40,923 bases of DNA from a virus (lineage: Duplodnaviria; Caudoviricetes). The stretch is from positions 1-40,923 of IMG/VR virus record IMGVR_UViG_3300033067_000422, one strand, 5' to 3'. Below are positions 1 through 40,864 of the stretch, piece after piece; position 1 is the first letter of the stretch; every line of letters begins with the position of its first letter. The notes below the pieces were generated by a model that was not told where the DNA came from, searched no databases, and was given only the letters and a program-made list of their open reading frames with translations. The position numbers and the translations under genes are program-made.

Positions 1-2028
1 CCCGCCAGTACGGATGCTAACTTCATTTTTAAAGCGGTTCCAGTCGCGTATAAATTGCGCTTGCTCTGCCGGGGAGCCACTTGCGGCCACAGCCAGTAGT
101 TCTTCGTGGTACTCGTTACTGCGACGAATACCCTCACGCCAGTTACGTACGATATTGGTATTTGCGGGACCGAGGCGGTTTTTAGACGGTACTGAACCAA
201 GCAAGAACTGTACGTCCTTGTCGGAAGTCGAACCCTTTAAAAGCGACGCGCCGGAGGCAGTCAGCTTGTTGGAGATAACTTCCAGTTCTTGCATAGTAGA
301 ATTGTTAGGCGTTATGACGCCGGGCGCATAGTTGTTGAGGAAACCACCAGTGCCGTACTTATGATTAAGCCCCTCGAAGTTGTCGAGTAGTTGCTCAACT
401 TCGGAGTTTTGCTCAATCTTAGCGGACACACCTCGACCGAATGGCGTTTGAAGTATCAAGTCACGCTTATGCAGTGCTGCTTCTTCCTTAGTAGCAGCGT
501 TAGCGTCAATCTGCATTTGCGCGCGCTTTAGTTCCGCGCTATTATTGAGATTGGCCAGCCCGTATGAAGTCTCACGGTCGAAGCCAGCGCGCTTCATTTC
601 ATGCAGGAAGCGCTTGTCTTCCTTTCGCATATCGTACCCAAAGTTTTGCTCGTTCAGGCTACGGCTCTGCTGGTACTGCTGCTGATTGCTATTGTACGTA
701 TTACGCGCGTTAAGGGCACTTTCAGTACGCGCAGACCTATCGGCGGCAAACATGCCCATTTCGGCATCGTAGCCCTTTTCGGCCAAACGCTGTTTACGCT
801 CGGTAGCGCTTTCGTTGAACTGGTCTTGCTGCCCAAGTCCCTTATCCAGCATAGTCTGCGCAGCCGCTGCTTCGTACTTGTTGCCGCGAAGCAGCATACG
901 ATACGCCTGCTGTAGGCGCTCCGACTGCGTAGCCGCTTCCGCTGTAGGCAGAGTAGGCTTTTCGAGCGGCGCGGGTACTTCAGGAAGTACAGGAGGCTGA
1001 CCACCGTAAATATCAGAGGCGGAATTAGCAGGCGCTTCCTGCGCAGCTTGATCTTGCGGCTGACCGGGTTCAGCCCTGTTCATCTTTAAAGAAGTTGGAT
1101 CAATACGCTTTCCGCTTGCGTCGCGTACAGTAAAGTGCAGGTGCGGCCCGGTGGCTCGCCCTGTCTGCCCCACTGCACCGATGACTTGGCCAGCTTGTAC
1201 AGGATCGCCCTGCTTAACGCCTATTTCGGACAAATGCGCGTAGCCGGTTTTAGTACCGTCTTCATGGCGAACAATGATCGAGTTACCACCACCGTGGGCT
1301 TTGTCGAACCACGCCTGTACAACTACGCCGTTACCTGCTGCTTGTACAGGAGTACCAAGCGGCGCAGCCATATCGACACCGTTATGGAAAGTAGAAGCGC
1401 CCGCGATAGGCGCAGTACGCGGCCCGTACTTGCTAGTAACGTGGCCGCGCCCTGATAAAGGGTCGGTGAAAGGAGCTACCCCCTGTGGCCTAGGAGCCGC
1501 CATAGAGCGCGCTACAGGGGAGGGAGCCACCATCGACGGGGCAACCGTAGGCTGGAAGGCCGTAGGGGGCGCTACGGGGGCCGCTGGGGGCTGCTGGGGG
1601 CTTATGCCGGGGAGCGGCGGCGCAGCGCTGCCCATGGGGGCAGGGCGGAGCGCAGCCGAGTTGACCTGAATATCGCCGCCGTCACCGCCACCGGACAGCG
1701 CGCCAGCTATGCGTTGTGCCACATCCTGCGGTACATCAGCCTTGCGCGCCTCTAGTAGTCCTGCCTCGTCACGGTCGTACTTGCGCCGCTGCGCTTTGTC
1801 GATGAAGCCACCGGCAATACCAGACAACGCGCGGGCAATGCCGTCAGCTACGCCCCAACCGCCACCGGCAACGGGAGCGGTACTCGTATCCATAAGGGAC
1901 AGAGCAATCTTAGTACGAGGGTCGTTCTGGTATGCCTGCGCAATTTCGGGCACACCCGGCGCGGTCCCGTTAGGGTTATACGGCGGTGTGCTGTAGGGGG
2001 GCGGCTGTCTGAAGTCTCGAAGGGCCAT
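1..2028 (-). CDS. Internal virion/ejection protein with central M23 metallopeptidase domain (5' part; continues across the window junction, about 695 aa total)
   Basis: Absent from the ORF track. ATG at 2028 overlaps the upstream stop (TAATG); 676 codons to base 1. Hand translation of ~1100-1450 gives TSKYGPR...FHNGVDMAAPLGTPVQAAGNG...GGGNSIIVRH...YAHL...VGQTGRATGPHLHF (HxxxD and HxH M23 motifs). I checked the frame at both ends and in the M23 part, not at every codon. Confidence 0.85.
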   Translation of the reverse strand, partial: MALRDFRQPPPYSTPPYNPNGTAPGVPEIAQAYQNDPRTKIALSLMDTSTAPVAGGGWGVADGIARALSGIAGGFIDKAQRRKYDRDEAGLLEARKADVPQDVAQRIAGALSGGGDGGDIQVNSAALRPAPMGSAAPPLPGISPQQPPAAPVAPPTAFQPTVAPSMVAPSPVARSMAAPRPQGVAPFTDPLSGRGHVTSKYGPRTAPIAGASTFHNGVDMAAPLGTPVQAAGNGVVVQAWFDKAHGGGNSIIVRHEDGTKTGYAHLSEIGVKQGDPVQAGQVIGAVGQTGRATGPHLHFTVRDASGKRIDPTSLKMNRAEPGQPQDQAAQEAPANSASDIYGGQPPVLPEVPAPLEKPTLPTAEAATQSERLQQAYRMLLRGNKYEAAAAQTMLDKGLGQQDQFNESATERKQRLAEKGYDAEMGMFAADRSARTESALNARNTYNSNQQQYQQSRSLNEQNFGYDMRKEDKRFLHEMKRAGFDRETSYGLANLNNSAELKRAQMQIDANAATKEEAALHKRDLILQTPFGRGVSAKIEQNSEVEQLLDNFEGLNHKYGTGGFLNNYAPGVITPNNSTMQELEVISNKLTASGASLLKGSTSDKDVQFLLGSVPSKNRLGPANTNIVRNWREGIRRSNEYHEELLAVAASGSPAEQAQFIRDWNRFKNEVSIRTGG

Positions 2029-16297: not shown

Positions 16298-16889
16298 GTT
16301 CCTTTTGTGCGGGTGTGGGCCGTGGTCGATTACCTAAAGTAGTTTACTTGTAGGGCTGTGCGGAACTTTAGTACTAACTCTATTGTACAAAAATGAAAAA
16401 TTTTGGTGTGCTGGTATCCTGTACAAGTACACCCCGCCCTGCCGATTGACCCGGTGGCGGGGTACATATCAAGTACAAAAGGGGAACAGACCAAGAACAA
16501 ATCAATACTCGACCAAAACATTTAACATAATACATATTATCAATCAAGGCGAAGTACTTTAAAGTAGTTATGTAGAATTTCGAGTGAGAGCACGTAATCC
16601 ACACTCATATCTCAAAGTATTCAAGTATAGCCAAGTAACCACAGCCTGCCCGGCGCTGTACTTATTTAAATGTATAGGTTGTTAATGTGCATCTGACTAA
16701 CAACAGGTACATATAACTGTTTTCCGAAACATGTCCTTATATATGTACATATCTATCTATACTAAAAAACCCTATATATAAAAATATCGCTAAGTATAGA
16801 AACGCCTAGCGGACGGCTTATGGTGGCAGACTTACCCATGGATACCCCCTCGACCCCCAAAATGGCCAAACTGGAAACACCCACATTTG

Positions 16890-16902
16890 TAAGCCCTTGA
16901 TT
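16890..16902 (-). promoter_or_regulatory. IHF-binding consensus match
   Basis: Minus strand AATCAAGGGCTTA matches WATCAANNNNTTR exactly. Confidence 0.5.
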
Positions 16903-16921
16903 TTGCTGGCTTTTCGACCAC

Positions 16922-16930
16922 TTATCCACA
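16922..16930 (+). promoter_or_regulatory. DnaA-box consensus match
   Basis: Perfect TTATCCACA; a one-mismatch copy TAATCCACA lies at 16595-16603. Confidence 0.45.
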
Positions 16931-17023
16931 TTTAACTGAATAGATTAAAATTTAAATCTAAGGTCCCTTTTATTTCCTCAATTCCAGACATATAGATAGT
17001 GCCCTTTTAGCGGAGTTAATCAA

Positions 17024-17512
17024 ATGTCTACTAAATCACGTATAGTCATGCGTCCTTGGCTTACTAAAAAGTACTATGACTTATTGTTCCGGTCTACAGT
17101 ACTACACATTGATATAGTTGCTTATCGGTCGGATAACTTTAAAGGCGCGTTCTTTGAGGTAACGGCGCGGCAAGCCGGGGAAACGGTATTAGCGCGGGAT
17201 GTGTACACCCTGGACGGTCAAGCGGGGCTTGTGCTGTGCCCGCATGCAGTTGAACTAACGCAGCGGATTATTTGGACGCGTACAACACACCCAATTTTCC
17301 GGGTTGTACATAAGGCGCTAGTCCGCTTGGCGGCTGTGCCAGTGCCGGGTTTCGTCATTGTGCCACATTTCCATTATATCGGCGTGCCCGACTGTGACCC
17401 ATGGCCACGGGGCATGGCTAACGGCTTCCGGTACAGCCGCAAGGCGGGAGCGATGGCGTCCGATGCACTCCCCGCGCCTAGCGCTTTTGATGCCTTTAAA
17501 GGTATCCTGTGA
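17024..17512 (+). CDS. Hypothetical early protein (162 aa)
   Basis: GGAG RBS; first ORF of the plus arm. Confidence 0.7.
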   Translation: MSTKSRIVMRPWLTKKYYDLLFRSTVLHIDIVAYRSDNFKGAFFEVTARQAGETVLARDVYTLDGQAGLVLCPHAVELTQRIIWTRTTHPIFRVVHKALVRLAAVPVPGFVIVPHFHYIGVPDCDPWPRGMANGFRYSRKAGAMASDALPAPSAFDAFKGIL

Positions 17513-17516
17513 CGCT

Positions 17517-17560
17517 GGGCGGATTAATCGCTTTTAGTATTTAATCCGCCCGGATTAATC
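17517..17560. repeat. Three alternating copies of CGGATTAA forming two overlapping inverted repeats
   Basis: GGGCGGATTAA (17517-17527), TTAATCCGCCC (17541-17551), CGGATTAATC (17551-17560). Confidence 0.7.
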
Positions 17561-17741
17561 GTGTACCAGATAGGTTAGAATGCGAAGATTGATACGCGCC
17601 TAGCCATACAGCCAAATTGTACTAGACGCGCTCTACGGGGCTTAAAACGGCTTCTAGGGCATAGTGTGGTTTGGCATGGTACTTGCAACGCATGCGGGCG
17701 CGTTCCCCTGTACGTTGTCGGCATTATTTACATTTGGGGGC

Positions 17742-17770
17742 TTGTAATCCGTTTAAAGCGGGCGTAGATA
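17742..17770 (+). promoter_or_regulatory. Putative early promoter TTGTAA-N17-TAGATA
   Basis: 17-bp spacing, about 40 bp upstream of the SprT-like gene; the spacer contains GTTTAAAG. Confidence 0.45.
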
Positions 17771-17812
17771 CTAGGGCACGGGCAGTGTGCCCGCTTTGAA
17801 AGGACCACGGCA

Positions 17813-18409
17813 ATGACAGTTATCTATGACACCCGCGAAGAATGGCTAAACGCGTTCATCGACGCCAGCCGCGCTCAATTCGATGCGGCGGACGCGCCTC
17901 TACCTTTGAATGTACGCGTTGCGGTCGGCTTCACTAGCAAAGGCGCGCGCGGCAATCGCATTGGTGAATGCTGGGGGCAGGAAGCAAGCGACGACGGCCA
18001 TTTTGAGATATTCATTAAGCCGACACTGGTAGACGCTGCCCGCATTTGCGACGTTATGACGCATGAGCTTGTACATGCCGCCGTAGGGCTTGGCGCAGGC
18101 CACGGCCCTAGCTTCCGGCGCGTTGCACTGGCGCTTGGTCTGGAAGGCAAAATGACGGCTACCACGGCTAGCGCCAAGTGGTACGCATGGGCCTTGCCAA
18201 TTATCGAAAGCCTAGGGCCTCTCCCCTACGCTGCCCTGCATGGCTCGATGAATACCGGACGCCCGAAACAGGCAACTAGCTTGCTCAAGGCGGAGTGCCC
18301 AGCTTGCGGGTTTCTTGCCCGTATCACCGCGAAGCATATCACGCCACATAGCCACCTCAATTGCCCAGTGCCCGATTGCATCGGCACACTTTTGACAGAC
18401 CTCGACTAA
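17813..18409 (+). CDS. SprT-like zinc metallopeptidase with C-terminal Zn ribbon
   Basis: HELVH (HExxH) followed by GHGPSF; C-terminal CPACG...CPVPDC. Confidence 0.8.
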   Translation: MTVIYDTREEWLNAFIDASRAQFDAADAPLPLNVRVAVGFTSKGARGNRIGECWGQEASDDGHFEIFIKPTLVDAARICDVMTHELVHAAVGLGAGHGPSFRRVALALGLEGKMTATTASAKWYAWALPIIESLGPLPYAALHGSMNTGRPKQATSLLKAECPACGFLARITAKHITPHSHLNCPVPDCIGTLLTDLD

Positions 18410-18451
18410 TCCAGTAAGCAACCGCCACCACGGCAAGCGAAAGGTAATGCA

Positions 18452-19741
18452 ATGTCAGCCACGAACGAACGGATCGAGCGCCTAGTGCGCAAGGCAGCGG
18501 AAGCCAACCGCTCCGCGATACTGGCCCCGCGCAACATCGACCATCACGTGCGCGGGTACCTCGAAGAACTAGCCACGGCTTGCGGCGCTACTTATGCCAG
18601 TGCGCAGAGTGCAAGCGAACGTGACCTAATCGCGCTGTACGATACGGCGCGCAAGGCCCCGCAAAGCGCTATCGCGGTAGCGCGTACGCTGGGACGCAAG
18701 TATTCCGGCGCGTCCCCGGTTGCGAGTGACCCCGCCCCTAGCGTGCAAATGCAGGAGGTTAACGCCACCACCATAGAGCGCGCCCTTGGCTATCTCCCAC
18801 CGTCATTGACCGAAGTGTTATCGGAACTGGGCGAGCGCTTTAAAGCGCAAGGGCGCGAAGCGGTACTTGCTCACAATACCCGGCTAGACAAGTTTGTTGG
18901 TTGCTTCGAGGAGGCGCTACCCGGCATGGTGGCGAGCGCTTTAAAGGCACTCACGCCCACAACCCTAGTAATCCAAAAGCCTAACTCCGCGCCAGAGCCT
19001 ACCGGCGCGGTACATTTCCAGACCCCGCGCATTTTGCGTGCCTTGAACGCGCGCTTGAACGTCTACTTGAACGGCCCAGCCGGGAGCGGCAAAACGACTA
19101 GCGCGCAAGTATGCGCTAAGGCCCTTGGCGTCCCCCTGTACTGCACGGCCAAAGTAGAAAGCGAATATTTGCTCCTAGGCTTCCGCGACGCGCGCGGGGA
19201 GACAGTGCGGACGCAATTCCGCGAAGCCTATGAACATGGCGGGTTGTTCCTGTTTGACGAACTAGACGGCTCAAGCCCTAGCGCCATCGTGGCGCTCAAT
19301 AGGGCACTGGCAAACAAGGTGTGCGCCTTCCCAGACGGCAACGTGCCGATGCACGCTGACTTCTACTGTCTGGCGGCTGGCAATACTGCACTGACTGGCG
19401 CAACCCGCGCTTATCAGGGGCGAAGCGCTCTTGACGGCGCGTCCATCGACCGTTTCTATTTTATCGACTTCCCGTACGATGAAGTACTGGAGCGCTCGCT
19501 CGCCACTAACGCCGGATGGTGCATGCACGTCCAAGCAATCCGCGCGGCTGTACGTGAACGGGGCTTGGAGGTCATTATATCGCCGCGCGCTACTTTCGAC
19601 GGCTGCAAGGCGCTTGAAGCCGGGGAGACTTGGGAAGACGTAGAGCGCGCAACTTGCTTTAAAGGGCTTGATGATGCGACTGTGCAGCAACTTAAGGGTG
19701 CGCTTATTAATCCGCTTATTAGCAACAGGAGCGCGGCGTAA
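18452..19741 (+). CDS. MoxR/CbbQ-type AAA+ ATPase
   Basis: Walker A GPAGSGKT, Walker B FLFDELD, sensor-1 AAGNT, Arg finger LDGASIDRF, ISPRA lid motif. Confidence 0.88.
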   Translation: MSATNERIERLVRKAAEANRSAILAPRNIDHHVRGYLEELATACGATYASAQSASERDLIALYDTARKAPQSAIAVARTLGRKYSGASPVASDPAPSVQMQEVNATTIERALGYLPPSLTEVLSELGERFKAQGREAVLAHNTRLDKFVGCFEEALPGMVASALKALTPTTLVIQKPNSAPEPTGAVHFQTPRILRALNARLNVYLNGPAGSGKTTSAQVCAKALGVPLYCTAKVESEYLLLGFRDARGETVRTQFREAYEHGGLFLFDELDGSSPSAIVALNRALANKVCAFPDGNVPMHADFYCLAAGNTALTGATRAYQGRSALDGASIDRFYFIDFPYDEVLERSLATNAGWCMHVQAIRAAVRERGLEVIISPRATFDGCKALEAGETWEDVERATCFKGLDDATVQQLKGALINPLISNRSAA

Positions 19742-20571
19742 TGCGTAGCAACGTAACCGGGCGCAAGGCGCAGTATTGGTTTGATAGCTTGTCGGAGCTT
19801 GGCCAGTACATCGTAGACACCAAGCCCACTTGGTCGATCAAGAGCAGCCGCAAGGTCGGTAGCAGCAAGTCATGGGACCTAGGCGCAAGCTATGATGATG
19901 CCGTGAACATGGCGCGCAATGGCTGGCTTGAAGGCGCAGCAAAGGCGCAGGAAGCTTTAAAGGCGTTCCAGCCTATGACACCCGCGCCCCTTACGCGTAA
20001 TGACTTCTACGGTCACATGGCGCATGTTCCCCGTTTCTGTGCTGGCGCGCCAGACAGCATGATCAGGCACACGCCACAGCCGCGCGAAGGGTACGGCAAA
20101 GTAATAACCTTGGTTGTGCCTGTGAACGCCACAGCGGACGTTAGCGCGCAAGCCATGGCCAACTTTGGCTTAGGTGTGGCGCAGTATATCAACCAACTTG
20201 AGAACGACCGGGTACGCGTCGAAGTGATCGGCGCAATCGTTAGTGTGGTATCCGGCTGGCGCGTCTCCCATTGCTGGAAAGTGAAGGGCGCAGATCAGCC
20301 GCTAGACTTGGCCGTATTGGCTTTCACGATTGGGCACCCTGCCATGTTCAGACGGCTTGGCTTCGCACTACGTGAACGTTGCGCAGCCCCGCAAGACTGG
20401 GATTACGGCCAGTCGAAGCGCGCCACTGTGGCGGACGTTATCAATTGCCCGCTTAACGCCTTTGTATTGAATGGCATGACGGAAGCGGACAGGCACGCTA
20501 AGACCCCGGAGAGCGCGCTAGAGTACATAAGCGGGGAGATTGACACGGCAACACAGGAGCAAGGCAAATGA
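19741..20571 (+). CDS. VWA-like partner of the AAA+ ATPase (degenerate MIDAS)
   Basis: TAATG coupling to the ATPase; VPRFCAGAPDSM...KVITLVVPVNATA...LENDRVRVEV...HPAMFRRLGF pattern resembles phage VWA-like proteins. Confidence 0.6.
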   Translation: MRSNVTGRKAQYWFDSLSELGQYIVDTKPTWSIKSSRKVGSSKSWDLGASYDDAVNMARNGWLEGAAKAQEALKAFQPMTPAPLTRNDFYGHMAHVPRFCAGAPDSMIRHTPQPREGYGKVITLVVPVNATADVSAQAMANFGLGVAQYINQLENDRVRVEVIGAIVSVVSGWRVSHCWKVKGADQPLDLAVLAFTIGHPAMFRRLGFALRERCAAPQDWDYGQSKRATVADVINCPLNAFVLNGMTEADRHAKTPESALEYISGEIDTATQEQGK

Positions 20572-20933: not shown

Positions 20934-21173
20934 ATGGGTTACTTTAAAGGGCGCAAGTACATAGTGTTGACGCAGAACGATAACGGCTCATTTGCGGTGG
21001 AACGGGGAGAGTTTGACAGCCCCGCCCCTGCTGGCACACTGGCCGGGGAACTGCACGCCATGGGTGAAGCGTACGTTATAGAAGAACGCGATTGGATTAT
21101 GCGCAAGTACATAATCGAGAAGAGGCGCGCTAAAGTAACGCGTTCGGCAAGCCATAAAAGGAAGATGAAATGA
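20934..21173 (+). CDS. Hypothetical protein (79 aa)
   Basis: GAGGAGGG RBS; tight packing with neighbours. Confidence 0.65.
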   Translation: MGYFKGRKYIVLTQNDNGSFAVERGEFDSPAPAGTLAGELHAMGEAYVIEERDWIMRKYIIEKRRAKVTRSASHKRKMK

Positions 21174-21307
21174 GAGCTACTTTAAAGCAACTCGCCCAGT
21201 TCTGTGTGGTGTACGACTGCACGGCGGAGATAGACGGAGACAAGATGATCGCGCGCGTTAGCTGCGCAATTACTGGCCAATGCATAGGTGCTATATGGCT
21301 CAAGTAG
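21170..21307 (+). CDS. Hypothetical protein (45 aa; not in ORF track)
   Basis: MRATLKQLAQFCVVYDCTAEIDGDK...; ATGA overlap, AAGGA RBS. Confidence 0.55.
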   Translation: MRATLKQLAQFCVVYDCTAEIDGDKMIARVSCAITGQCIGAIWLK

Positions 21308-21318
21308 GAACTAGGCCC

Positions 21319-21447
21319 ATGCTAGCAGAAGAGGCGCATTATATGGGGGAGCCTTGCTGGCATGCTGTGCAGTACTACGAACGCTTGCGAAGCCAACGGC
21401 TGCTGCGCCAAATATACAATCCTCGCAGGCCACGGTTGCCCCTGTGA
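21319..21447 (+). CDS. Possible hypothetical protein (42 aa; not in ORF track)
   Basis: MLAEEAHYMGEPCWHAVQYYERLRSQ...; AGGA upstream; fills the gap. Confidence 0.35.
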   Translation: MLAEEAHYMGEPCWHAVQYYERLRSQRLLRQIYNPRRPRLPL

Positions 21448-21488
21448 GATAAGTACTTTAAAGCAACCACAACAAAGGGAATACGGCA

Positions 21489-21830
21489 ATGGATACTAAG
21501 GAAAGAGAAGCATTTGTACGCGGTTTCGTCGAAGCCGGTATGCGGCGAGCGGATATAAGCACGATACTCGATATGACTGCTAAAGTGGGTGATGAATTAG
21601 AACGCTTGATACTGAACGCAACAAAGGCGCTTGGCTGCGTAATGGGTCCCGACGCGCAGAGTAGCGGCGCGGTGTTCATTGCGCAGTACTTAGCGGCTAA
21701 GCTGGAGCTAAGCACCAGTGCGGTTATACAGCACATGGCGTCAATAGGCGAAGTCCGTGTATGCCGAGGCCTGGGCTACGACGACTCCAACAAATACGAC
21801 GACTCCAATAGTAGCTTTAAAGGGCACTGA
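21489..21830 (+). CDS. Hypothetical protein (113 aa)
   Basis: AAAGGGA RBS; C-terminal YDDSN duplication. Confidence 0.65.
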   Translation: MDTKEREAFVRGFVEAGMRRADISTILDMTAKVGDELERLILNATKALGCVMGPDAQSSGAVFIAQYLAAKLELSTSAVIQHMASIGEVRVCRGLGYDDSNKYDDSNSSFKGH

Positions 21831-22048
21831 TGTACAGCCCCTGCATCGGTTGTCGGCGCAGCGAGTGCCGGGACGGGACGAGGCGCACAGATTGCCTTGC
21901 CCCGTACCCGCGCTTGCGCGCTATCAGTAACAGCCCTAATGGGTTCAAGTACGTAGTCAGTACTATAGGTTGGTCTGAATACGAAGTGGCTTTCTATAAT
22001 AGGCAAGTAGAAGATATACACCACCCCCGCCTACCCGATATACTTTAA
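21830..22048 (+). CDS. Hypothetical protein (72 aa, Cys-rich N-terminus)
   Basis: TGATG coupling; the stop TAA lies inside a CTTTAAAG copy. Confidence 0.5.
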   Translation: MYSPCIGCRRSECRDGTRRTDCLAPYPRLRAISNSPNGFKYVVSTIGWSEYEVAFYNRQVEDIHHPRLPDIL

Positions 22049-22061
22049 AGGAGTTGTAGCC

Positions 22062-22394
22062 ATGACACCTGACGAACGTATAAAAGAAGCTGTGATAGAC
22101 GCGGTAAACGAAGTTGACGTAATGGTACGGCTGCAAGCCGTGCGCCCTGTTACAAGCGTTGTGCTTAAGGATATGGTGTCGCTTGCAGTAACCCGCGCAA
22201 TGCGCATTGTGCTTGAAGAGGTAGCACCGAAGCCCCCGCCTATAACGCCCGATGACCTCCCGCCCCTGTCCTACGGGTGCCCTTTAAAGTCGTCAGTTTG
22301 GGGATCAGACGAATACAAGTGCCCTGATTGCGGTATGCAGTGGGCACTTGATGAAGACCGCCCCGCCTGCCCCAATAAACTAAGGGTAAAGTAA
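22062..22394 (+). CDS. Hypothetical protein with C-terminal Zn-ribbon (110 aa)
   Basis: AAGGAG RBS; C...CPDCG...C. Confidence 0.7.
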   Translation: MTPDERIKEAVIDAVNEVDVMVRLQAVRPVTSVVLKDMVSLAVTRAMRIVLEEVAPKPPPITPDDLPPLSYGCPLKSSVWGSDEYKCPDCGMQWALDEDRPACPNKLRVK

Positions 22395-22456
22395 TGGGCA
22401 TACTCGCAGTGTTACTTATCCTATTGGCCTTCGCCTACATCATAGGCGATATGTAA
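22394..22456 (+). CDS. Possible 20-aa membrane peptide
   Basis: MGILAVLLILLAFAYIIGDM; TAATG coupling, AAGGG RBS. Confidence 0.4.
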   Translation: MGILAVLLILLAFAYIIGDM

Positions 22457-22469
22457 GGAGTACTTTAAA

Positions 22470-22892
22470 GTGACCCCACTATTAACCGCCGATGATATCG
22501 TGCAAAGCTTCAACATAGCAGTAGAGCGCAAGTACTGGAAGGCCCGCTTAGGCAGTGCTGCCAAGGTGCCAACTGTGCATTTTAATAGCGTCTCAAGTAT
22601 GGTGCAGCTTGTGTACTACCCGGAGAACCAGCGCTTCGCGATCACCTTTAGCAAGGTATCGTGTGCGTTTGGGGATTTCATGGCCAGCACATACAGCGCC
22701 CTGTCGCAGATACTAACCGCGCTTAAGGCATGCGGGCATGAGGTCGCCGCGCCCCTTGACGACCTCGACGGCTGGCTGCGCATCGAATTTTGCGCCGCTA
22801 CCAAGCAAGCCTATGTGAGCTTGGCCAAGCTGGATGACGACTGGCTTGAGTACTCGGAGCCTACCTTTAAAGAGCCTCAAATAATTTTATAG
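22470..22892 (+). CDS. Hypothetical protein (140 aa)
   Basis: AAGGAG RBS; the GTG start overlaps a CTTTAAAG copy. Confidence 0.65.
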   Translation: MTPLLTADDIVQSFNIAVERKYWKARLGSAAKVPTVHFNSVSSMVQLVYYPENQRFAITFSKVSCAFGDFMASTYSALSQILTALKACGHEVAAPLDDLDGWLRIEFCAATKQAYVSLAKLDDDWLEYSEPTFKEPQIIL

Positions 22893-22908
22893 TGTTTGCA
22901 TTTTGGGG

Positions 22909-22937
22909 TTGACGTACTGAAACGCCGCCCCCATAAA
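22909..22937 (+). promoter_or_regulatory. Sigma70-type promoter TTGACG-N17-CATAAA
   Basis: Exact 17-bp spacer, T-rich upstream element, about 45 bp before the ATG at 22984. Confidence 0.65.
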
Positions 22938-22983
22938 GGCCAAGTCAATACGACACAAGACAACCACGGAAAAGGAATTGCAC

Positions 22984-23661
22984 ATGACCGAAGTTACTAC
23001 CGAAGCTCCCGCCGTGGCCGTTGCTGACACTGTTTTGGTGTTCGAGCTTCCCGGCATTACTGGCCAGCACTCGTTCGATTGCGCAACGATTCCGGCCAAC
23101 GTCCGCCTCGACTTCCTCAAGGACAAGGTGCGCGGGTACTTCCAGAACCGGGTGAACGCCACCGCCATGCGGCACGCCAAGGATGCTACCGTCGCGGCTT
23201 GGCACGCATACGACGAAGCCAGCAAGGCTGATCCGCTGCAAACCGCAGTCCCCAAGCCGGAAGGCGAACGCCCAGCCGCCGCCGATCTGGCAGGTACTCT
23301 CTCCAAGGCCATGACTGATCTGGTCGCTGGCAACGTCCGCAAAATGGGCACTGGCGAGAAGAAGCCCCGCGAGCGTGCCGACCCGCTTATCAAGGCGGTT
23401 ACTAGCGCAGTTGTGCGCGAAGTATTCGAGAGCGGCAAGGCGGCTAACCCGAAGTTCACGTACTTGGAAGCTTCCAAGCAGGTGGGCAAGGATGGCGTGG
23501 CGTACCTCAATGCCATGATCGAGAAGCGCGTTGCCGAAGGTGTGGATCGTACCGCACTGGAAAAAATGCGCGACACGAAGTACATCAATCCGGCCAAGAT
23601 TATGCTTGGCCAGACAGTTGGTAAGGCGATCAGCGAGTTGCCTTCCATCCTTGGCCTGTAA
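22984..23661 (+). CDS. Probably abundant helical protein of unknown function (candidate DNA-binding protein)
   Basis: 225 aa with AAGGA RBS, its own promoter and terminator; C/G-ending codon bias like the capsid gene; basic patch RKMGTGEKKPRER. Confidence 0.8.
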   Translation: MTEVTTEAPAVAVADTVLVFELPGITGQHSFDCATIPANVRLDFLKDKVRGYFQNRVNATAMRHAKDATVAAWHAYDEASKADPLQTAVPKPEGERPAAADLAGTLSKAMTDLVAGNVRKMGTGEKKPRERADPLIKAVTSAVVREVFESGKAANPKFTYLEASKQVGKDGVAYLNAMIEKRVAEGVDRTALEKMRDTKYINPAKIMLGQTVGKAISELPSILGL

Positions 23662-23690
23662 CACCCCTCCCCTTATAGGCTAAGGCGACG

Positions 23691-23730
23691 AAGGGCCAAG
23701 TACTTTAAAGGTACTTGGCCCTTTTGTTGT
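23691..23730 (+). terminator. Intrinsic terminator
   Basis: 13-bp stem AAGGGCCAAGTAC/GTACTTGGCCCTT, loop TTTAAAG, followed by a T-rich tail. Confidence 0.8.
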
Positions 23731-23760
23731 ATGCAGGGGACGTATTTGGAGTTTGTAGCT

Positions 23761-23904
23761 ATGGCGCACTATAAACCAAAGAATACCTTTAAAGGCAATC
23801 ACGCTAAGCCCTGCCTCACGCATGACTGTGGCCAGTACACGAAAGACCCGACCGGCCACTGCCACAAGCACAGAGAGCGGAAGGCACGCCAGCGCCACCG
23901 ATAG
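23761..23904 (+). CDS. Small basic CCCH Zn-knuckle-like protein (47 aa; not in ORF track)
   Basis: MAHYKPKNTFKGNHAKPCLTHDCGQYTKDPTGHCHKHRERKARQRHR; GGAG RBS. Confidence 0.55.
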   Translation: MAHYKPKNTFKGNHAKPCLTHDCGQYTKDPTGHCHKHRERKARQRHR

Positions 23905-23907
23905 GGG

Positions 23908-23936
23908 TTGACAGGTCCCGGCCCGCCCGCCATAGG
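23908..23936 (+). promoter_or_regulatory. Sigma70-type promoter TTGACA-N17-CATAGG
   Basis: Perfect -35 element and 17-bp spacer. Confidence 0.55.
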
Positions 23937-23941
23937 GGGCC

Positions 23942-24013
23942 TGCCTGTTCCATTGCCGTGGAGCATCAACCCCGGAAGGGCGGTAGGTCACAAGCCTGCC
24001 GCCCTTCTTCGTT
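23942..24013 (+). ncRNA. Candidate ~70-nt small RNA (two hairpins)
   Basis: Lies between the 23908 promoter and a 14-bp terminator-like stem (23975-24007). 5' stem TGTTCCA/TGGAGCA; no RBS-ORF inside. Confidence 0.4.
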
Positions 24014-24059
24014 GCTGTAGGCCCCGTTTCTGGCCGCTGTGGACAGGATTAGAAGGCGC

Positions 24060-24089
24060 TTGACAGCCTCCTCCCATGGGGGCTAAGCA
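24060..24089 (+). promoter_or_regulatory. Sigma70-type promoter for the replication operon (TTGACA...GCTAAGCA)
   Basis: Perfect -35, 17-18 bp to the -10-like element, upstream of the primase-helicase. Confidence 0.55.
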
Positions 24090-24142
24090 ATCCCCGGCAC
24101 GCTGGCCTCTGGCTAGTGATTTAGGGTTGATGGCGGGGGCTA

Positions 24143-26317
24143 GTGCAGCAGCACGATTACACCGAGATAGAGCAAGCGCTGGCTGCATTTATGCGGCCCG
24201 GTGATGTGTTTGAGGTGCGCCTGATACACTCGGGACGCAAGCGGATCGACGCCGGATACTTTGACCACCCCGCGCACGCTGCAACCGCTATCTGTGGCCT
24301 GCAAGAGAGCTACCAAGGCATATACTTCACGCCAAACCCGGTAGCGCCCGACTTGGCCGCGCGTGCGTACAACCGTATAAACCCTTGGGCGCAGCTAACC
24401 ACACAAGACCCGGATATACTAGAGCGCCGCTGGCTGCTTATCGACATTGACCCGATACGCCCGACCGGAATTAGCTCGACAGACGCCGAACTAGACAACG
24501 CCTTTAAAGTAGCTCGCAGGTTGAGCAACATGCTTGAGCTTGAAGGCTGGCCGCGTCCCCTTATCGGCGCTTCCGGTAATGGATGCCACCTAGAGTACGC
24601 GATACAAGAGCCGAACACCGAGTTTGTACGCGATGAAATATCTAAGTTACTCAAGTGCCTAAACGCACGCTTTAAAGGTGATGGCTGTGAGATAGACACA
24701 ACCGTGTTTAACGCCGCCCGCATTTGGCGCATACCCGGCACATGGGCACGCAAGGGCGACAGTACAGCGACAAGACCGCATCGCAAGTCGCATGTGATAA
24801 GCAAGCCAGACGAGCTAGTACCCGTGCTCATAGGCACGATAGCCAAGTTTAATGCCAAGTACGAGAGCATGTTGCCAGCGCCTGCCAAAGCCGGTGCCGC
24901 TAAGAACAAAGCCGAGTACCCGGACGACGAGCGCAAGTACCGTGGCCTAAACGAACAAGCCATGAACCGGCTTAAGGAATGGGTGCCAATCCTGTTCCCC
25001 GCCGCCCGTGAGTACAAACAAGGCTATAGAGTATCAAGTGACGAACTAGGATTGTCATTTGAGGAAGACCTTACGATACATCCTTGGCCACTTGGCATTA
25101 AGTACTTTGGTATAGCCGATCAAGGGGATTATACGGAAGGGCGCAGGACCCCGGTAGCACTGGTAGCTGAACTTCTATACAACGGCGACAAGGAGCTAGC
25201 TGCCCGCAAATTGTCGGATATACTTAAGGCACCGTTAACCGAGTTCGATGCCCTGCCCCCTCCGGTACAAGCTTTAAAGCTACCCGGTGCCGAGCCTGCC
25301 CAAGCACTCTACGATTTCAGCCGAGTACCTAGCATAGCCGATCTACAGAAACGTACGTTTAAGCCGATCAAGTGGGTAATACCAGATGTACTACCTGTAG
25401 GCGCGATATTGCTAGCAGCCCGCCCTAAAATGCGCAAAACCTTCCTCGCATTGCAACTCTCTATAGCGATAACAGCAGGGCGCAAGTTCCTTAATTGGCA
25501 ATGCGAGCAAGGCGACGTATTGTTTTTGGGCCTAGAGGACAACGAGAGGCGGCTACGCTCCCGTATCAAGCTTCTACAGAGCCTCGATCTTAACCCGCCC
25601 GATTTATCAGGCTTCCGCTACTGGACAGGTGGCGTTGATATCAACCCGGCAGGGCAACAGTTCATAAGCAACCCGGAAGAGGCGGCGCGTACGCTGGCTG
25701 CATTTCCCAAAGGCCAAGCCGGGGTAGATGCTTTAAATACATACATGGATATGTACCCTAAGACACGAATGATTGTAGTTGATACGCTAGCCCGTTGGCG
25801 CGATACGTCTACTAACCGAGACATATACCAGCGCGACTACGATCAGATGATGCCGCTGACACAGTTTGCCAATGACAGGCAAGTATTAGTTTTAGTAGTA
25901 CACCACGAAAAGAAGGGGTTGGCCAGTGCAGACACAGGTGATTTCATGGAGGACGTATCCGGCTCAAGCGGGATTACAGGTGCGGTTGACGGCGTTATGT
26001 CCATCAAGGGTAAGCGCGGTACTACCGACGAAAATGAGGCACGCAAGTTGCTGCTATCGGGCCGGGATATCCCCCGCGATTTTGACGTTGATATAGCATT
26101 TGACGCACAACGGGGCGGCTGGCTTACTGCCGCGCGTCAAGATGTACAGGAAGCAATTAAAGCGCTTCTTGGTCATCACCCGTACCTGAACCAGCAGGAG
26201 CTAGCTGCCCTGCTCCCCAACACTTCACGGTCGAGGATTTCCCAAGTACTTACTCAACTCAAGTTTGACGGGTTGGTAGTACAGAATAGATTTGGGTACT
26301 CGCTGGCGAAGATATAA
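24143..26317 (+). CDS. Primase-helicase: N-terminal AEP-like primase plus RepA-like (AAA_25) helicase and C-terminal wHTH
   Basis: LIDID, SGNGCH and RIWRIPGT primase motifs; ARPKMRKT Walker A variant, LGLED, IVVDTL Walker B, VHHEKK and SGSSGITGAVD. Confidence 0.85.
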   Translation: MQQHDYTEIEQALAAFMRPGDVFEVRLIHSGRKRIDAGYFDHPAHAATAICGLQESYQGIYFTPNPVAPDLAARAYNRINPWAQLTTQDPDILERRWLLIDIDPIRPTGISSTDAELDNAFKVARRLSNMLELEGWPRPLIGASGNGCHLEYAIQEPNTEFVRDEISKLLKCLNARFKGDGCEIDTTVFNAARIWRIPGTWARKGDSTATRPHRKSHVISKPDELVPVLIGTIAKFNAKYESMLPAPAKAGAAKNKAEYPDDERKYRGLNEQAMNRLKEWVPILFPAAREYKQGYRVSSDELGLSFEEDLTIHPWPLGIKYFGIADQGDYTEGRRTPVALVAELLYNGDKELAARKLSDILKAPLTEFDALPPPVQALKLPGAEPAQALYDFSRVPSIADLQKRTFKPIKWVIPDVLPVGAILLAARPKMRKTFLALQLSIAITAGRKFLNWQCEQGDVLFLGLEDNERRLRSRIKLLQSLDLNPPDLSGFRYWTGGVDINPAGQQFISNPEEAARTLAAFPKGQAGVDALNTYMDMYPKTRMIVVDTLARWRDTSTNRDIYQRDYDQMMPLTQFANDRQVLVLVVHHEKKGLASADTGDFMEDVSGSSGITGAVDGVMSIKGKRGTTDENEARKLLLSGRDIPRDFDVDIAFDAQRGGWLTAARQDVQEAIKALLGHHPYLNQQELAALLPNTSRSRISQVLTQLKFDGLVVQNRFGYSLAKI

Positions 26318-29461: not shown

Positions 29462-31624
29462 GTGGAGCCGTTGCGGACACATATAGACTTTGAGACGCGT
29501 AGCTTAATCGACTTAATTAAGTTAGGCGAGCATGCGTACGCGCGTCACTGGTCTACGTCTCCGCTAATGATTACTGTCGGTACTGCCCCCAAAGGTGTAA
29601 AGCCTGTATTCGAGCTAATAGACTTTTTCGGGAATAGTAGCTATGTGCGATCGGTCTACCCCAATAATCCGCAACCGAAATGGCAAATCTTTAAGCTCCC
29701 TTGCCCGCCTAGTATCCTTGCTGCGGTGGCCCGAGGCGATACATTCGTTGCGCATAACGCCCGATTTGAACAAGCAGTATACTACTATATCTGTCACCTT
29801 AAATGGGGGTGGCCGCTACCTGTACGTTGGTCGTGTACTGCCGCAAGAGCAAGATATTATGGAATTAGGGCGGCTCTTGCAGGTACGGCCTCCGATCTTG
29901 AAGTTATTCATCAGAAAGATGAACGGGGTAAAGAGTTCATAAACACCTTTTGCAAACCGAGAAAGTACCATGGTAAAAAAGCAGATGGCATTGTCAAAGT
30001 CCTATGGGCAGAACCGAGCGAGCTACCAGAAGAATACGCAATCGGTAAAGCGTACTGTATATCGGATGGCGAAGCCGAAGCTGACGTTGATGCAGTACTA
30101 CCCGATCTACCGGAGTTTGAACAAGCGGCATGGGAATGGGATTTTAATATCAACATTCGCGGAGTTCCGATTGACATTCCTAGCGTGGCCTCTGCAATTC
30201 AGTTCTCTGATGTATTTACGGCGGAAGCCGTTGCGCGCTTCGAGGCGATTACGGCGCTCCGTCCGACGCAGCGTGATCGAGTTTTAGAGTATTTACAACA
30301 GCGTGAAGAAATATCCGAGTTGGGTGACTTACGCAGCAAGACTTTAAAGCGGCTGATTGCCGCCGACTTCCCGCCCGATCTACAGGACGTTATTAGTATT
30401 AGGCTCGACTGCTCTTTGGCTTCTACCAAAAAGCTCGCCACTATGATACGTACTACAGATGACGATGGAATGGCACGCGGTATCCACTTGTACGGCGGCG
30501 CGCATACTATGCGATGGAGCGCCAAGCGCATCCAGACGCAGAACATGAAGCGCGGCGACAGGGACGTACAGGCGGGCTTCTTTGATTTCATGGCCCACCC
30601 GACTTGGAGCGCCCCCCGCATGGGCCACAATGGCGGTCCTAGCCTCCTAGAGCCGCCCCCCGAGCCTGCTTGGCTAGAACCGGCCCGCTGGCGCTTCATG
30701 CGCCCCCTGCACGCCTTGAGCCTGTCCATGAGGGGCTTTGTGAAGGCACCCGAGGGCAAGAAGTTCGTCGCCGCTGACTTCGCGCAGATCGAGGCGCGCG
30801 TGCTGGCGTGGCTGGCCAGAGCCGACCGGAAGCTAGACGCGTTCCGCAACAAGAGAGACTTGTACGTACAGTTCGCCGGGGTCATGTATAAGCGCGAATA
30901 CGAAGAGTACTTCGAGATAGTAGACGGCAAACGCAAGGTGCAGGCCCGATACGCTTTTGAGCGCCAAGTTGCCAAGTCGGCTGAACTGGGTTGCGGATTT
31001 GGCCTAGGCGGTCCTAAGTTTCAGGAGTACTGCGATAACTCCGATATTATCATCGACCTTGATACTGCTAAGAACACTGTAAACGTGTGGCGTGAAGACA
31101 ATCCAGAAATCGTAGCACTGTGGAGCCGTGTAGAGGCAGCAGCTATACTAGCAGCTAGCAACCACGGTTCGGTATATGAGATTGGTGGTACTGACGTTAA
31201 GTTCTATACGTGGCATATCGACGAAGAGCGTTATTGGCTCGTATGCGAGCTACCTAGCGGACGGTGCATACACTACTATAGACCCAAAGTGCAGCTTACG
31301 GTTAGGTGGGGCCGCGCCAAAGAACAGCTTACGTTCCGTAAAGAGTGGAACGGCAAGTCGTATAGGGAGAGTACTTATGGCGGGAAGCTTGTGGAGAATA
31401 TCGTGCAGGCTATTGCTCGGGATATTATGGTTGTTGGTGGGCTACGTGCAGAAAAAGCTGGTTATCCTGCTATTATGCTTGTTCACGATGAAGTTGTTAC
31501 TTTGGTGGACGATGCCTTCGGAAGCCACAGTGAGCTATGTAGTTTGCTATGTAGTCAGGAACCTTGGGTTACAGATTTGCCTGTAGAGGCAGAAGGCGCA
31601 ACAATGTACAGGTACGGTAAGTAG
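29462..31624 (+). CDS. Family A DNA polymerase with 3'-5' exonuclease
   Basis: ExoI HIDFETRS, ExoII AHNARFE, motif A ADFAQIEARVLAWLA, motif B RQVAKSAELGCGFG, motif C VHDEV. Confidence 0.95.
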   Translation: MEPLRTHIDFETRSLIDLIKLGEHAYARHWSTSPLMITVGTAPKGVKPVFELIDFFGNSSYVRSVYPNNPQPKWQIFKLPCPPSILAAVARGDTFVAHNARFEQAVYYYICHLKWGWPLPVRWSCTAARARYYGIRAALAGTASDLEVIHQKDERGKEFINTFCKPRKYHGKKADGIVKVLWAEPSELPEEYAIGKAYCISDGEAEADVDAVLPDLPEFEQAAWEWDFNINIRGVPIDIPSVASAIQFSDVFTAEAVARFEAITALRPTQRDRVLEYLQQREEISELGDLRSKTLKRLIAADFPPDLQDVISIRLDCSLASTKKLATMIRTTDDDGMARGIHLYGGAHTMRWSAKRIQTQNMKRGDRDVQAGFFDFMAHPTWSAPRMGHNGGPSLLEPPPEPAWLEPARWRFMRPLHALSLSMRGFVKAPEGKKFVAADFAQIEARVLAWLARADRKLDAFRNKRDLYVQFAGVMYKREYEEYFEIVDGKRKVQARYAFERQVAKSAELGCGFGLGGPKFQEYCDNSDIIIDLDTAKNTVNVWREDNPEIVALWSRVEAAAILAASNHGSVYEIGGTDVKFYTWHIDEERYWLVCELPSGRCIHYYRPKVQLTVRWGRAKEQLTFRKEWNGKSYRESTYGGKLVENIVQAIARDIMVVGGLRAEKAGYPAIMLVHDEVVTLVDDAFGSHSELCSLLCSQEPWVTDLPVEAEGATMYRYGK

Positions 31625-38740: not shown

Positions 38741-40864
38741 CTACTCCTGTACATTTCCGCCAACCGTGCCACCTGCACGGCCAGCATAGCGGCCTATACG
38801 TTTGTCCTGCGCACGGCGCTTAGCGTAGTGGGCCTTAGACGCTGCCACCTTAGCGGGCAAGCCCTCGCCACGGCCCATAAGCGCCCGTGCAAGCTCTTCC
38901 CGCGCTCTAGGCCCCATACCCCGGTTAAGCTGATCTAGCTTCGCTATGGCGTTCGCAGCCGCCCCCGTAGGCCCGCCAAACGAACCGCCCTTAACCATGG
39001 CCGTGCCCAGTTGCGCCGCAGCGTGCCCCTCGTCGAGATTTCCGGCTTGCCCAAGCGCGTTAGTAGCTGACTGCTTCCCGCGCGCAAGCATCCTATCAGT
39101 ACCCATGCCGCGTATTTCACGGCGTATAAAGCGGTCGAACAGGTTAAACTCTTTCGTACCGCCCATTACTTGCACCATTACTGCGCGCTTTTCTGGCGTA
39201 CTGGATAGGCTACGCATAGTAGCTATAGGGTTGTCAGTATGTAGCAGCGCGTCGATCATGCCTAAGCGATGCTCGTCAAGATTAGATGACGACTTTAAAG
39301 TATCCATTAGCTCACGCGGGCCATTGACGGTGCGCATTTGTTTCAGGAAACCCTGACCCTTAACCAAGGAGTCCGCTTTTTGAAACAAGTTGCGCTGGTT
39401 AGCTACAATATGCTCGTAGCCCGGAGCCGCGTCAGTGATTACTTTTTTAAGGTCGGACAAGTGGCGCGACAGCCCGGCGGCAAGAGTAGTATTGCCTTTA
39501 TTCATAGCTTCACCAATAGCGCCATTAAACTCCCTTTTGAGGTAGTCAAATACACGAAGGGTTGGTATAAGCTTAGGCTCGCCAGTACCGACACCACGTT
39601 GTAGCGTCTGCAAGTTTTCGCCAAAACGCTGCGCCGTAACGTACGCTTTTTCGAGAAGCCTACTAGCGTCGGGGCTATCTTTAAAGAACTTCTCTAGTTC
39701 CGGCGTATTAGGTACGTGAGTATCCATGACGCCGCCCGGTGAGTAGTCGATAGCGCCAGCACCTTTACGAGTAGCGTTTACCGTATTAGTAGCCGCATAC
39801 GCATCGTCGCCTACATTCGACAGACTACGCAACTTGGCATGGAAGCGGTCAAGTATACCAAGTGAACGGTCTTCCGCCTTAGTAACCAACTCGTTAGCAG
39901 CCGGATTGCCCGGTTCGCGCGCAAGGTGGCCAGCTACGTTATTCATTTCGGGCGACAGGTCGGCAAGCATAGGCTCGTTACCGCGCGCGGCGCTTACATT
40001 CATTTCACGCACAGCACTTTCAGGCGAGTACACGGGACCTTTACCAGTAGGGCCGGAGTGCGCGCGACTAAGCAAGTCGGCTATCTTGCGATAGGCTACA
40101 TTGCTAGCGTTACTGGCTGCGCGATCCCCAATTACTTGTGCTATGTGGCTACCGGCCCTAGCTGCGCCACCTAGCATACCGCCCAAGGCCCCGCCGCCCG
40201 CAGCACCCGCCATCATAGCTTCTGGGAGTTGGGATATGTCACCTTTATCGACTGTAGCGCCCGCTGCGTTTAAAGCGCCCATATTAGCGCCAGTACGTAT
40301 AGCTACTCCGACTGGGGTACTAGCAGCCTTAGCGACTACTCTTCCTACTTTAGTAGCAGCGGCAGCTTTTGCGGCGTTAGGGGTCAGTCTGGCCAGACCT
40401 GTAGCCTCGCCCACCGGAACTATCATTGACCCGGCAAATTCAGCGGCTCCCGTACGTATCGGGTGGTCGCCGTAATCCTTGTTGGCCAGCAAGTGCGCGG
40501 CTTCTTGATTGCGAGTGTACTCGTCGCGGAAATTCTTGCCGCCAAGCGAAGCTATACCGGCGCTAATGGCAGATTGCACGGGGTCCTTTAAATACATCGA
40601 AGCGCCACGCTGAACCGCACGCGCCATATCCCCGGTAGCGCCATTGGCGAAAGGTACAAGGCTTTTTGTCAAATCGCTCGCTTGCGCCATGTTTGCAGCG
40701 CGGCGCTGTATATCTGCTGCTCTCGGATCAGGTGCAGCGGGGCGGGCAGTTAGCGTAGGGCGGGCAGGCGCTGCATAACGGGCGCGTACTTGCGCCTTAA
40801 CTTCCGGGGAAGTTCCGGGGGCAAAATCTACAAGTTGCCCGTTAGGCATACGCTCCGTAGCCAT
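38741..40864 (-). CDS. Large internal virion (ejection) protein
   Basis: 707 aa, Ala/Gly-rich and helical; between the M23 ejection protein and the tail fibre. Confidence 0.65.
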   Translation of the reverse strand: MATERMPNGQLVDFAPGTSPEVKAQVRARYAAPARPTLTARPAAPDPRAADIQRRAANMAQASDLTKSLVPFANGATGDMARAVQRGASMYLKDPVQSAISAGIASLGGKNFRDEYTRNQEAAHLLANKDYGDHPIRTGAAEFAGSMIVPVGEATGLARLTPNAAKAAAATKVGRVVAKAASTPVGVAIRTGANMGALNAAGATVDKGDISQLPEAMMAGAAGGGALGGMLGGAARAGSHIAQVIGDRAASNASNVAYRKIADLLSRAHSGPTGKGPVYSPESAVREMNVSAARGNEPMLADLSPEMNNVAGHLAREPGNPAANELVTKAEDRSLGILDRFHAKLRSLSNVGDDAYAATNTVNATRKGAGAIDYSPGGVMDTHVPNTPELEKFFKDSPDASRLLEKAYVTAQRFGENLQTLQRGVGTGEPKLIPTLRVFDYLKREFNGAIGEAMNKGNTTLAAGLSRHLSDLKKVITDAAPGYEHIVANQRNLFQKADSLVKGQGFLKQMRTVNGPRELMDTLKSSSNLDEHRLGMIDALLHTDNPIATMRSLSSTPEKRAVMVQVMGGTKEFNLFDRFIRREIRGMGTDRMLARGKQSATNALGQAGNLDEGHAAAQLGTAMVKGGSFGGPTGAAANAIAKLDQLNRGMGPRAREELARALMGRGEGLPAKVAASKAHYAKRRAQDKRIGRYAGRAGGTVGGNVQE

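Follow-up and report, generated by a model that had tools for sequence, protein, structure and literature searches.

A SprT-like zinc-ribbon protein as the likely reader of a genome-wide iterated eight-base word in a phage

Which factor reads a short palindrome that a phage repeats dozens of times along its genome, and what would such an array be for? The question arises from the IMG/VR virus record IMGVR_UViG_3300033067_000422 (Duplodnaviria; Caudoviricetes), a whole phage record of 40.9 kb (40,923 nucleotides, hereafter the window), over which the eight-base word CTTTAAAG is dispersed. A first-pass annotation had proposed that this word is a selected recognition site labelling the phage DNA as self. 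Our analysis partly supports this interpretation and adds two elements to it: the word appears to be one spelling of a family, and its likely reader is encoded by the phage. The 46 copies of CTTTAAAG are very probably docking sites for the phage's own SprT-like protein, a predicted protease carrying a C-terminal zinc ribbon.

Exactly 46 perfect copies of this unstranded word were counted between 1084 and 39686, which fixes the earlier figure of at least 46. They start at positions 1084, 2096, 4189, 5023, 6679, 7600, 9560, 10558, 11022, 11667, 13575, 16557, 17137, 17494, 18838, 18939, 19657, 19955, 20735, 20942, 21180, 21456, 21815, 22043, 22282, 22463, 22865, 23703, 23787, 24502, 24670, 25272, 27264, 27936, 28779, 29143, 30342, 31738, 31876, 32582, 33755, 35046, 36065, 36417, 39293 and 39679, the last copy occupying 39679-39686. 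Markov models predict 0.49 copies at order 0, then 0.83, 0.72 and, at order 3, 2.2; orders 4-6 absorb the word itself. C and G flank 46 of the 70 TTTAAA hexamers, in line with the first reading. The 29 one-mismatch variants deviate mostly at an outer base (17, for 2.4 expected, close to the roughly 16 near-matches first reported), 12 times at positions 2/3 and never at the central TA (5.1 expected). The four longer palindromes that had been pointed out are present; extension of the palindrome at the next base stays at the chance level, being observed at 13 of 46 sites where flank frequencies predict about 27%. Other 6-base palindromes are depleted (median observed/expected 0.27, with 18 of 64 absent), in agreement with the statement that phages usually lose palindromes, and TTTAAA is the exception at 10-fold over. 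Contigs from public runs (4 runs from 2 studies) span 16200-36000 with 7 listed substitutions, none of them inside a site, and the array is therefore not an assembly artefact.

The use of several reading frames was also verified: 23 sites encode Phe-Lys, 15 encode x-Leu(TTA)-Lys, and 8 are intergenic or at gene junctions, including two Leu-stop cases (22043 and 29143). Thirty-eight of the 46 sites are intragenic, late genes included, and give 39 in-gene counts since one site falls in two overlapping genes. When synonymous codons were shuffled with every protein kept, the mean count was 3.7 and the maximum 9 in 1000 shuffles, versus 39, so that amino-acid use is not the cause. The word occupies 24 of the 26 Phe-Lys opportunities and 15 of the 23 [APST]-Leu-Lys ones, the latter through the rarest Leu codon, and Phe-Lys dipeptides themselves number 42 in the window proteins for 20.5 expected. 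The enrichment of CTTTAAAG is thus real and selection acts on the DNA, as expected of a selected, dispersed recognition site.

The sites are densest in a block at 16300..25300, which covers the divergence point and the early genes (21 sites, 2.3 per kb versus 0.7-0.9 elsewhere), and the early block is denser in all five relatives compared as well. Summed over 16 genomes, related ones not being independent, gaps shorter than one fifth of the mean were observed 44 times versus 93 expected, and even spacing is significant in Pan1, Powerpuff and Araceli (p <= 0.002). No strand-skew sawtooth was seen around the sites, and no orientation bias was detected in any of the 11 genomes with asymmetric sister words.

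The enrichment and, in part, the positions are conserved among relatives. Six full-length relatives carry 24-58 copies each and four outgroups none; all 15 loci with a capsid identity of at least 78% carry the word, and 32 of 34 more distant loci lack it. At orthologous codon-aligned columns in seven SprT-bearing relatives, sites recur in 320 of 750 comparisons (43%) versus 4.5% for control 8-mers. Since 44 site columns are private and 11 are common to 5-7 genomes, sites have been both held and turned over. The site within the DNA polymerase A gene (30342..30349) lies in the same alignment column in all eight clade genomes, and those at 5023, 32582, 13575, 9560, 19955, 24502 and 27264 are each common to at least five. 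None of the eight clade genomes has a site in the major capsid gene or in the GNAT gene (window 7653-8627). Terminase similarity was rejected as a predictor of the word, loci L069-L072, L084 and L085 holding no site at 72-76% identity.

CTTTAAAG is one spelling among CTTTAAAG, GTTTAAAC, GTGTAAAC, GTGTACAC, ATTTAAAT and CATTAAAG in phages and plasmids. The SprT-like protein is the sole window protein with a tblastn match in Pan1, R5C, UtzChips, Powerpuff, G037 and two sphingomonad plasmids, and all seven carry a sister word. GTTTAAAC accounts for 16 of 16 TTTAAA hexamers in Pan1 and for 17 of 19 in R5C; GTGTAAAC occurs 23 times in UtzChips and 27 times in Powerpuff. Outside this set, L404 holds 28 copies of CATTAAAG; the SprT check there covered 15.3 kb. 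Spellings also vary inside the family of the window, with ATTTAAAT in G013, CATTAATAG in G014 and G015, CATTAAAG in G019 and GTATTAAT in G018. In the complete genome G011, the SprT gene and the word are both absent, and the replication genes (57% identity) and the gene for a conserved 227-residue early protein are present. Six more distant SprT-negative genomes have no word, nor was such a word found in FP1 and Skylord, whose protease has a different C-terminus.

Several side observations concern word carriers and SprT-negative loci. The 6.3-kb contig L092/L191 holds 7 copies of CTTTAAAG and a second enriched word with the core GTAAATTA/GTAATTTA (8 each). On the sphingomonad plasmids L380 (7326-8978), L381 (4621-6264) and L357 (3466-5694), the SprT gene is immediately followed by parA and then by a small third gene, with rep alongside; in L380 and L381, one GTTTAAAC is located inside the SprT gene itself. 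The SprT-negative podophage loci L532, L534 and L530 have other enriched words, CTCGTAAG (13 versus 0.25) and GCTCGGCA (10 versus 0.4).

The candidate reader is a 198-residue protein encoded on the plus strand at 17813..18409, the first gene of a conserved early operon. Its Pfam score for the SprT-like family (PF10263) is 25.3 bits, just below the cut-off of 25.6. The AF2 model (predicted local distance difference test, pLDDT, 91) shows a zincin domain joined to a four-Cys ribbon by a linker of lower confidence. Its closest structural matches are SPRTN, abylysin and Wss1 (Foldseek, VIA), the best Foldseek match being SPRTN 6mdw (E 2e-3), with modest VIA Z values of 8.0 to 6mdx and 4jiu. The Foldseek alignment to SPRTN is full length but has a root-mean-square deviation of 14.7; the ribbon folded alone reaches a pLDDT of 57, and a homodimer predicted with zinc scored 0.11 against a mark of 0.42. 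A profile search of the Protein Data Bank (PDB) sequences gave no match, and atlas look-ups for the zinc ribbon all stayed below 0.9 and serve as leads only.

All its motifs are on the plus strand. The zincin motif H84-E85-x-x-H88 with H97 (18062..18103) is intact in the window and in 110 of 114 close homologues. The C-terminal zinc ribbon (18296..18379), with Cys162/165/184/189, R170 and T172, is invariant in 114 of 114. Between them lies the predicted recognition segment K152-K159 (18266..18289), in which Ser156 (18278-18280) tracks the outer base of the word. In the SprT homologues of L527, L528 and L529, an apparent N-terminal extension of 110-130 residues ends in a Pro/Lys/Ala-rich linker.

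In order to relate protein and spelling, 129 proteins encoded on at least 8 kb of DNA were reduced to 55 representatives at an 80% identity cut, nine duplicate loci having been dropped first. In this set, the spelling varies with the residue that comes after a conserved Thr, immediately ahead of the zinc ribbon. Arg156 goes with an outer G, Ser, Ala or Tyr156 with CTTTAAAG (outer C), Asn156 with an outer A, Phe or Trp156 with ATTAA-type words, and Arg156 followed by His or Tyr157 with GTGTACAC. In a tree built from the protease domain only, a Ser row separates the two rows with Asn, and GTGTACAC is found at distinct positions. The code was also consistent with all five whole contigs retrieved later, part of each of which had been seen before. 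In G036:C2 (Asn), ATTTAAAT was found 9 times versus 0.3 expected and ATTTAAAG 13 times versus 0.8, with 2 copies of CTTTAAAG; in G037, GTGTACAC was found 9 times versus 0.1 expected.

A gene-blind pattern search over 42 of the 64 parts of the collection returned 120 loci, of which one, a podophage with another head type, was dispersed-enriched; the other 119 were mostly AT-rich chance pairs, one being a local 855-bp array. Among the terminase relatives of this podophage, SprT is present in 5 of 26 records. L526-L528 carry 9, 17 and 21 copies of CTTTAAAG, the two complete proteins having Tyr156, and L529 and L549, with Arg156, carry 9 and 6 copies of GTTTAAAC and no CTTTAAAG. Its near-complete relatives have no SprT (0 of 9) and 0-1 TTTAAA at their loci; fragment L544, only part of whose record was covered by the SprT search, has 3 copies of GTTTAAAC. 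The proteins of L527 (Tyr) and L529 (Arg) are sisters (99/97) that differ in both residue and word. A single clade of Tyr156 proteins was rejected (approximately unbiased test, p-AU 8e-5), and Tyr156 therefore arose more than once. Four of four independent tree pairs were concordant with the code (23 scored rows, 34 rows in the tree).

Contacts of Arg with guanine and of Asn with adenine are standard ones, and the residue-word pairs fit direct readout by the SprT-like protein. Binding is very likely direct and probably involves a dimer, in which Arg would read G and Asn would read A. The C-outer spelling, the residue code and the apparent convergent switch were tested here, and the code is new.

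A further site may concern regulation of the reader itself. The one-mismatch word GTTTAAAG at 17751..17758, 55 bp before the SprT start, is a candidate autoregulatory operator; it lies between promoter-like hexamers (17742-17747 and 17765-17770) that were read by eye, the promoter scan having called no promoter there. Among 32 elements, 17 have their own top word, with at most one mismatch, within 120 nt upstream of the SprT gene, versus 5.9 expected, start codons being assigned by rule. It is fairly likely that this weaker site at the SprT promoter stops production of the protein when the perfect sites are occupied.

What would the docked protein do? The zinc ribbon of the early SprT-like protein would bind the CTTTAAAG addresses, so that a zinc protease would be tethered about once per kilobase of phage DNA, where it would cut or disable host proteins loading onto it. 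Candidate substrates are translocating restriction enzymes, SMC-type defence and AT-binding silencers. Such guarding is favoured because the SprT gene comes first in the early operon, because the sites avoid each other, as if each covered a neighbourhood, and because they are unoriented and intragenic. It is also favoured because the sites mark phage and plasmid, not host, because the densest arrays are in phages where no integrase was found, and because the active site is usually intact. SPRTN is described as a DNA-activated protease in the available part of its report (PMC5127644). We give about even chances to protection of the DNA of the element from host proteins by a docked protease. A widespread self-marking system, in which a SPRTN-like protease with a ribbon reading an 8-base address re-spelled by single amino-acid changes would destroy defence or silencing proteins on marked DNA only, is advanced tentatively, with somewhat less than even chances.

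In line with the self-label proposed by the first-pass annotation, sister words are confined to the element in three of four hosts: in three sphingomonad genomes, the prophage or plasmid contig accounts for 9 of 11, 5 of 7 and 4 of 5 of all copies in the genome, leaving 2, 2 and 1 copies outside the element. Such confinement is not seen in the fourth, the Burkholderia host of G042, where the word is at background (47 versus 42 for the control), and this is the first of several observations that weigh against docking by the SprT-like protein or against its guarding role. The complete genome G006 holds 24 sites, some of them private, and has no SprT or zinc-ribbon match. It keeps 4 of 17 conserved site columns, and its centre-mismatch variants number 11 versus 5.0 expected (0-5 in eight SprT-bearing genomes). 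These features fit decay of the array after loss of SprT, which this one case does not prove. A second word in G006 was excluded as a dispersed word, as it corresponds to a local tandem array of 14-bp iteron-like units in the divergence region (G006:C1 7698-8130). G012 (50 sites), G016, G035 and L525 also lack SprT, on incomplete records; that of G012 stops within a low-complexity repeat at the place expected for the SprT-MoxR-DUF7192 block. Conversely, 20 of the 55 representative homologue loci show a weak or no word with a 12-word panel applied to the available locus DNA, and the protein therefore does not need an array. One locus so scored, L280, proved positive once its whole contig was considered; in ep3, L353 and L356 the word occurs 3-4 times, including once or twice at the SprT gene. 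Within the family, MoxR and DUF7192, both present in G006, co-occur with the word slightly better than SprT does. The spacing in the window alone is not significantly even (p 0.11), and the sign test on the concordant tree pairs is not significant (p=0.125), the branch of L549 being very long and its placement poor. Six of the 55 representatives have lost HExxH, at three separate tree positions and always in word-rich elements, so that catalysis is not always needed. Finally, in the pair Liebe/Maureen, a 5' truncation of the SprT homologue goes with clear plaques, as far as the accessible text of bioRxiv 10.1101/2025.05.26.655371 reports; the same text states that the two phages differ at 4 places.

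This plaque difference favours the strongest rival, in which the same reader acts as a repressor: an array of operators or roadblocks would dampen early transcription or maintain a lysogenic or carrier state, the protease domain being a self-cleaving switch. The word upstream of SprT in 17 of 32 elements and the high density in the early block agree with it, as do two points from the accessible portions of published work, namely that cluster AZ has no identified repressor (bioRxiv 10.1101/2025.05.26.655371) and that SPRTN cleaves itself on DNA (PMC5127644). However, the window has a dense array though no integrase or ParA was detected among its 62 scanned open reading frames (ORFs), and sites are often few in carriers that are proviral or bear an integrase (Persinger 4, ep3 4, G037 9, G039 8), but Powerpuff has 27. 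The intragenic position of 38 of the 46 sites, late genes included, the lack of orientation bias and the scatter of the plasmid sites over the backbone also speak against a repressor array, which we consider possible but unlikely.

Could the same reader be a non-catalytic coat or organizer, its bound dimers bridging, positioning or shielding the DNA and its protease fold being a scaffold? Strong arrays in the six representatives without HExxH and the avoidance of close site pairs would agree with this; the catalytic residues kept in 110 of 114 close homologues and the sparseness of the sites, one per 0.9-4.5 kb, do not, and we regard a coat as improbable. Hardly better placed, and marginally behind it, is another phage reader, such as MoxR-DUF7192, the conserved 227-residue early protein or a replication-recombination protein, with SprT only travelling along. 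In its favour, G006 lacks SprT yet carries the word together with MoxR and DUF7192; G011, by contrast, has the replication genes and the 227-residue gene, yet no word, non-family word carriers share none of these genes, and the spelling follows SprT residues between sister proteins. Very unlikely, finally, is an origin of the word in mutation, by methylation-linked repair as in HIP1, or in the host, by a nucleoid or Chi-type factor: mismatches concentrate at the outer bases as described for HIP1 (PMC4390886, in the part available), but no methyltransferase was found in the 62 ORFs, as the first reading had it, or by a crude motif screen of 15 phage genomes whose positive control was found, the word is nearly absent from three of four host genomes (sister words), sites rarely lie close together, protein sequences have been changed to accommodate them, and there is no strand-skew imprint.

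Docking by the SprT-like protein may be compared with known dispersed sites. The KorB operators of RK2 and the Chi octamers on phages are likewise spread over a mobile element; they differ in that KorB is a ParB protein, while Chi has a polarity and a host enzyme as its reader. Unlike in the KorB case, parA on the sphingomonad plasmids is followed by a distinct small protein, which in one of them is annotated as ribbon-helix-helix. To our knowledge, proteases of the SPRTN/Wss1 type do not read a sequence. The phage protein, a predicted protease with 13-21% identity to them, differs in that its ribbon co-varies with a specific 8-mer. The likeness lies in a zincin fold that carries HExxH, with a putative zinc-binding domain behind it, SPRTN/Wss1 being the best structural match (PMC5127644; 6mdw, 6mdx, 5xbn), and these enzymes are described, in the text available, as clearing DNA-protein crosslinks in eukaryotes (PMC5127644).

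The stoperators of Cluster A mycobacteriophages, bound by the L5 repressor, resemble the present array by their phage-encoded reader, their more than 20 genome-wide sites, some at promoters, and a specificity that varies between phages (PMC9283540, as far as accessible). According to the same source, the L5 sites are asymmetric 13-mers, oriented with transcription, intergenic and bound by a helix-turn-helix (HTH) monomer. Here, in contrast, most of the 8-mers are palindromes, an orientation bias was seen in 0 of 11 genomes with asymmetric words, the sites are mainly intragenic, the candidate reader is a zincin with a zinc ribbon, and no integrase was found; oriented asymmetric sites, a predominant location at promoters or in short intergenic regions and an HTH repressor with a Stoperator domain are lacking, the HTH-like gene of the window (32846-33085) having no match in the relatives. 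HIP1 and the alternate HIPs of cyanobacteria are also hyper-iterated intragenic 8-base palindromes, with deviations mostly at the first or last base and alternate spellings, in the portion of PMC4390886 available, where they are described as chromosomal, GC-rich and tied to cognate methyltransferases. The window word shares the over-representation and the outer-base deviations, whereas it is AT-rich and on mobile elements, no methylase was found, and sister words are not abundant on host chromosomes. The analogies with HIP1, matS and Noc boxes consequently do not extend to membership in these classes, because no cognate methylase was found and the word is probably read by a protein of the phage, not of the host.

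For the 'SprT-like protease' of Clusters AZ, EH and EB, a DNA-binding tail is predicted and no site is named in the available text (bioRxiv 10.1101/2025.05.26.655371); its main text, so far as accessible, contains no binding site or iterated word (0 matches to GTAAAC or palindrom). Other reports mention SprT-like genes without sites in the portions available (PMC5313236, PMC7824862, PMC7474061). Among the matches listed, no published description of the word or of its pairing with SprT was found, subscription journals being outside the search.

The remainder of the window is that of a phage with a podophage-type head, related to Bradyrhizobium phage ppBjS10J-1, Myxococcus Mx8 and Stenotrophomonas BUCT555 (major capsid 46-56%). 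A megablast of positions 1-25000 against INPHARED gave no match, and one family member was binned in an alphaproteobacterial metagenome-assembled genome, a weak hint on the host. PHROG and Pfam scans, which took in 62 of the 237 listed ORFs, place the structural genes leftward and the early and replication genes rightward from about 17 kb; the replication set consists of a primase, a DUF2800 nuclease, a single-strand DNA-binding protein (SSB), polymerase A and SNF2. These scans detected no integrase, ParA or methyltransferase. Behind SprT on the plus strand, at 18452..20571, are the genes of a MoxR-type AAA+ ATPase and of DUF7192, possible partners within the family of the window only, as neither has a match in the non-family word carriers. 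The gene of the 227-residue early protein (22978-23661), conserved in nearly all family members, is followed by a terminator-like hairpin on the plus strand (23690..23724) with the 23703 site at its apex; no family match was obtained for this protein, and its atlas look-ups, all below 0.9, are leads only.

Some isolated features were also recorded. A Tad2-like (Thoeris anti-defence) gene at 26802-27134 (PF11195, E 2e-21) is common to only 1 of 21 compared genomes. A small HTH-like gene at 32846-33085 has no match in the relatives and an 87% identical tblastn segment in provirus G039; it is possibly a recent transfer and a host clue. The AT-rich divergence region contains, at 16922-16930, a single 9-mer that we take to be a DnaA box; there are 4 in G011, and several freshwater SprT loci hold 4-6 copies of the 8-base core. 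At 16590-16650 the contigs of all four runs break, and three of these runs have a higher depth in the first bin, which hints weakly at a terminal repeat or the end of the genome. Genome-wide, GTAC occurs 388 times versus 159 expected and GCGC 487 times versus 201, the expectation being from base composition alone.

Iterated palindromes such as HIP1 have long been without a known function, and a candidate reader is now named for one of them. The finding bears on the missing repressor of the cluster AZ phages; if this reader is only a repressor, it amounts to a variant of operator arrays. The code makes a direct prediction, namely that Ser156Arg would switch the specificity from CTTTAAAG to GTTTAAAC, and a zinc ribbon of 50 residues with a changeable 8-base specificity could serve as a tool. 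The self-marking system, if real, would be a sequence-addressed protease with a simple, programmable code. If the docking reading is true, bacterial viruses would possess a SPRTN relative working by DNA sequence, and a role would be given to the 'SprT-like protease' of 164 phage and 74 plasmid records.

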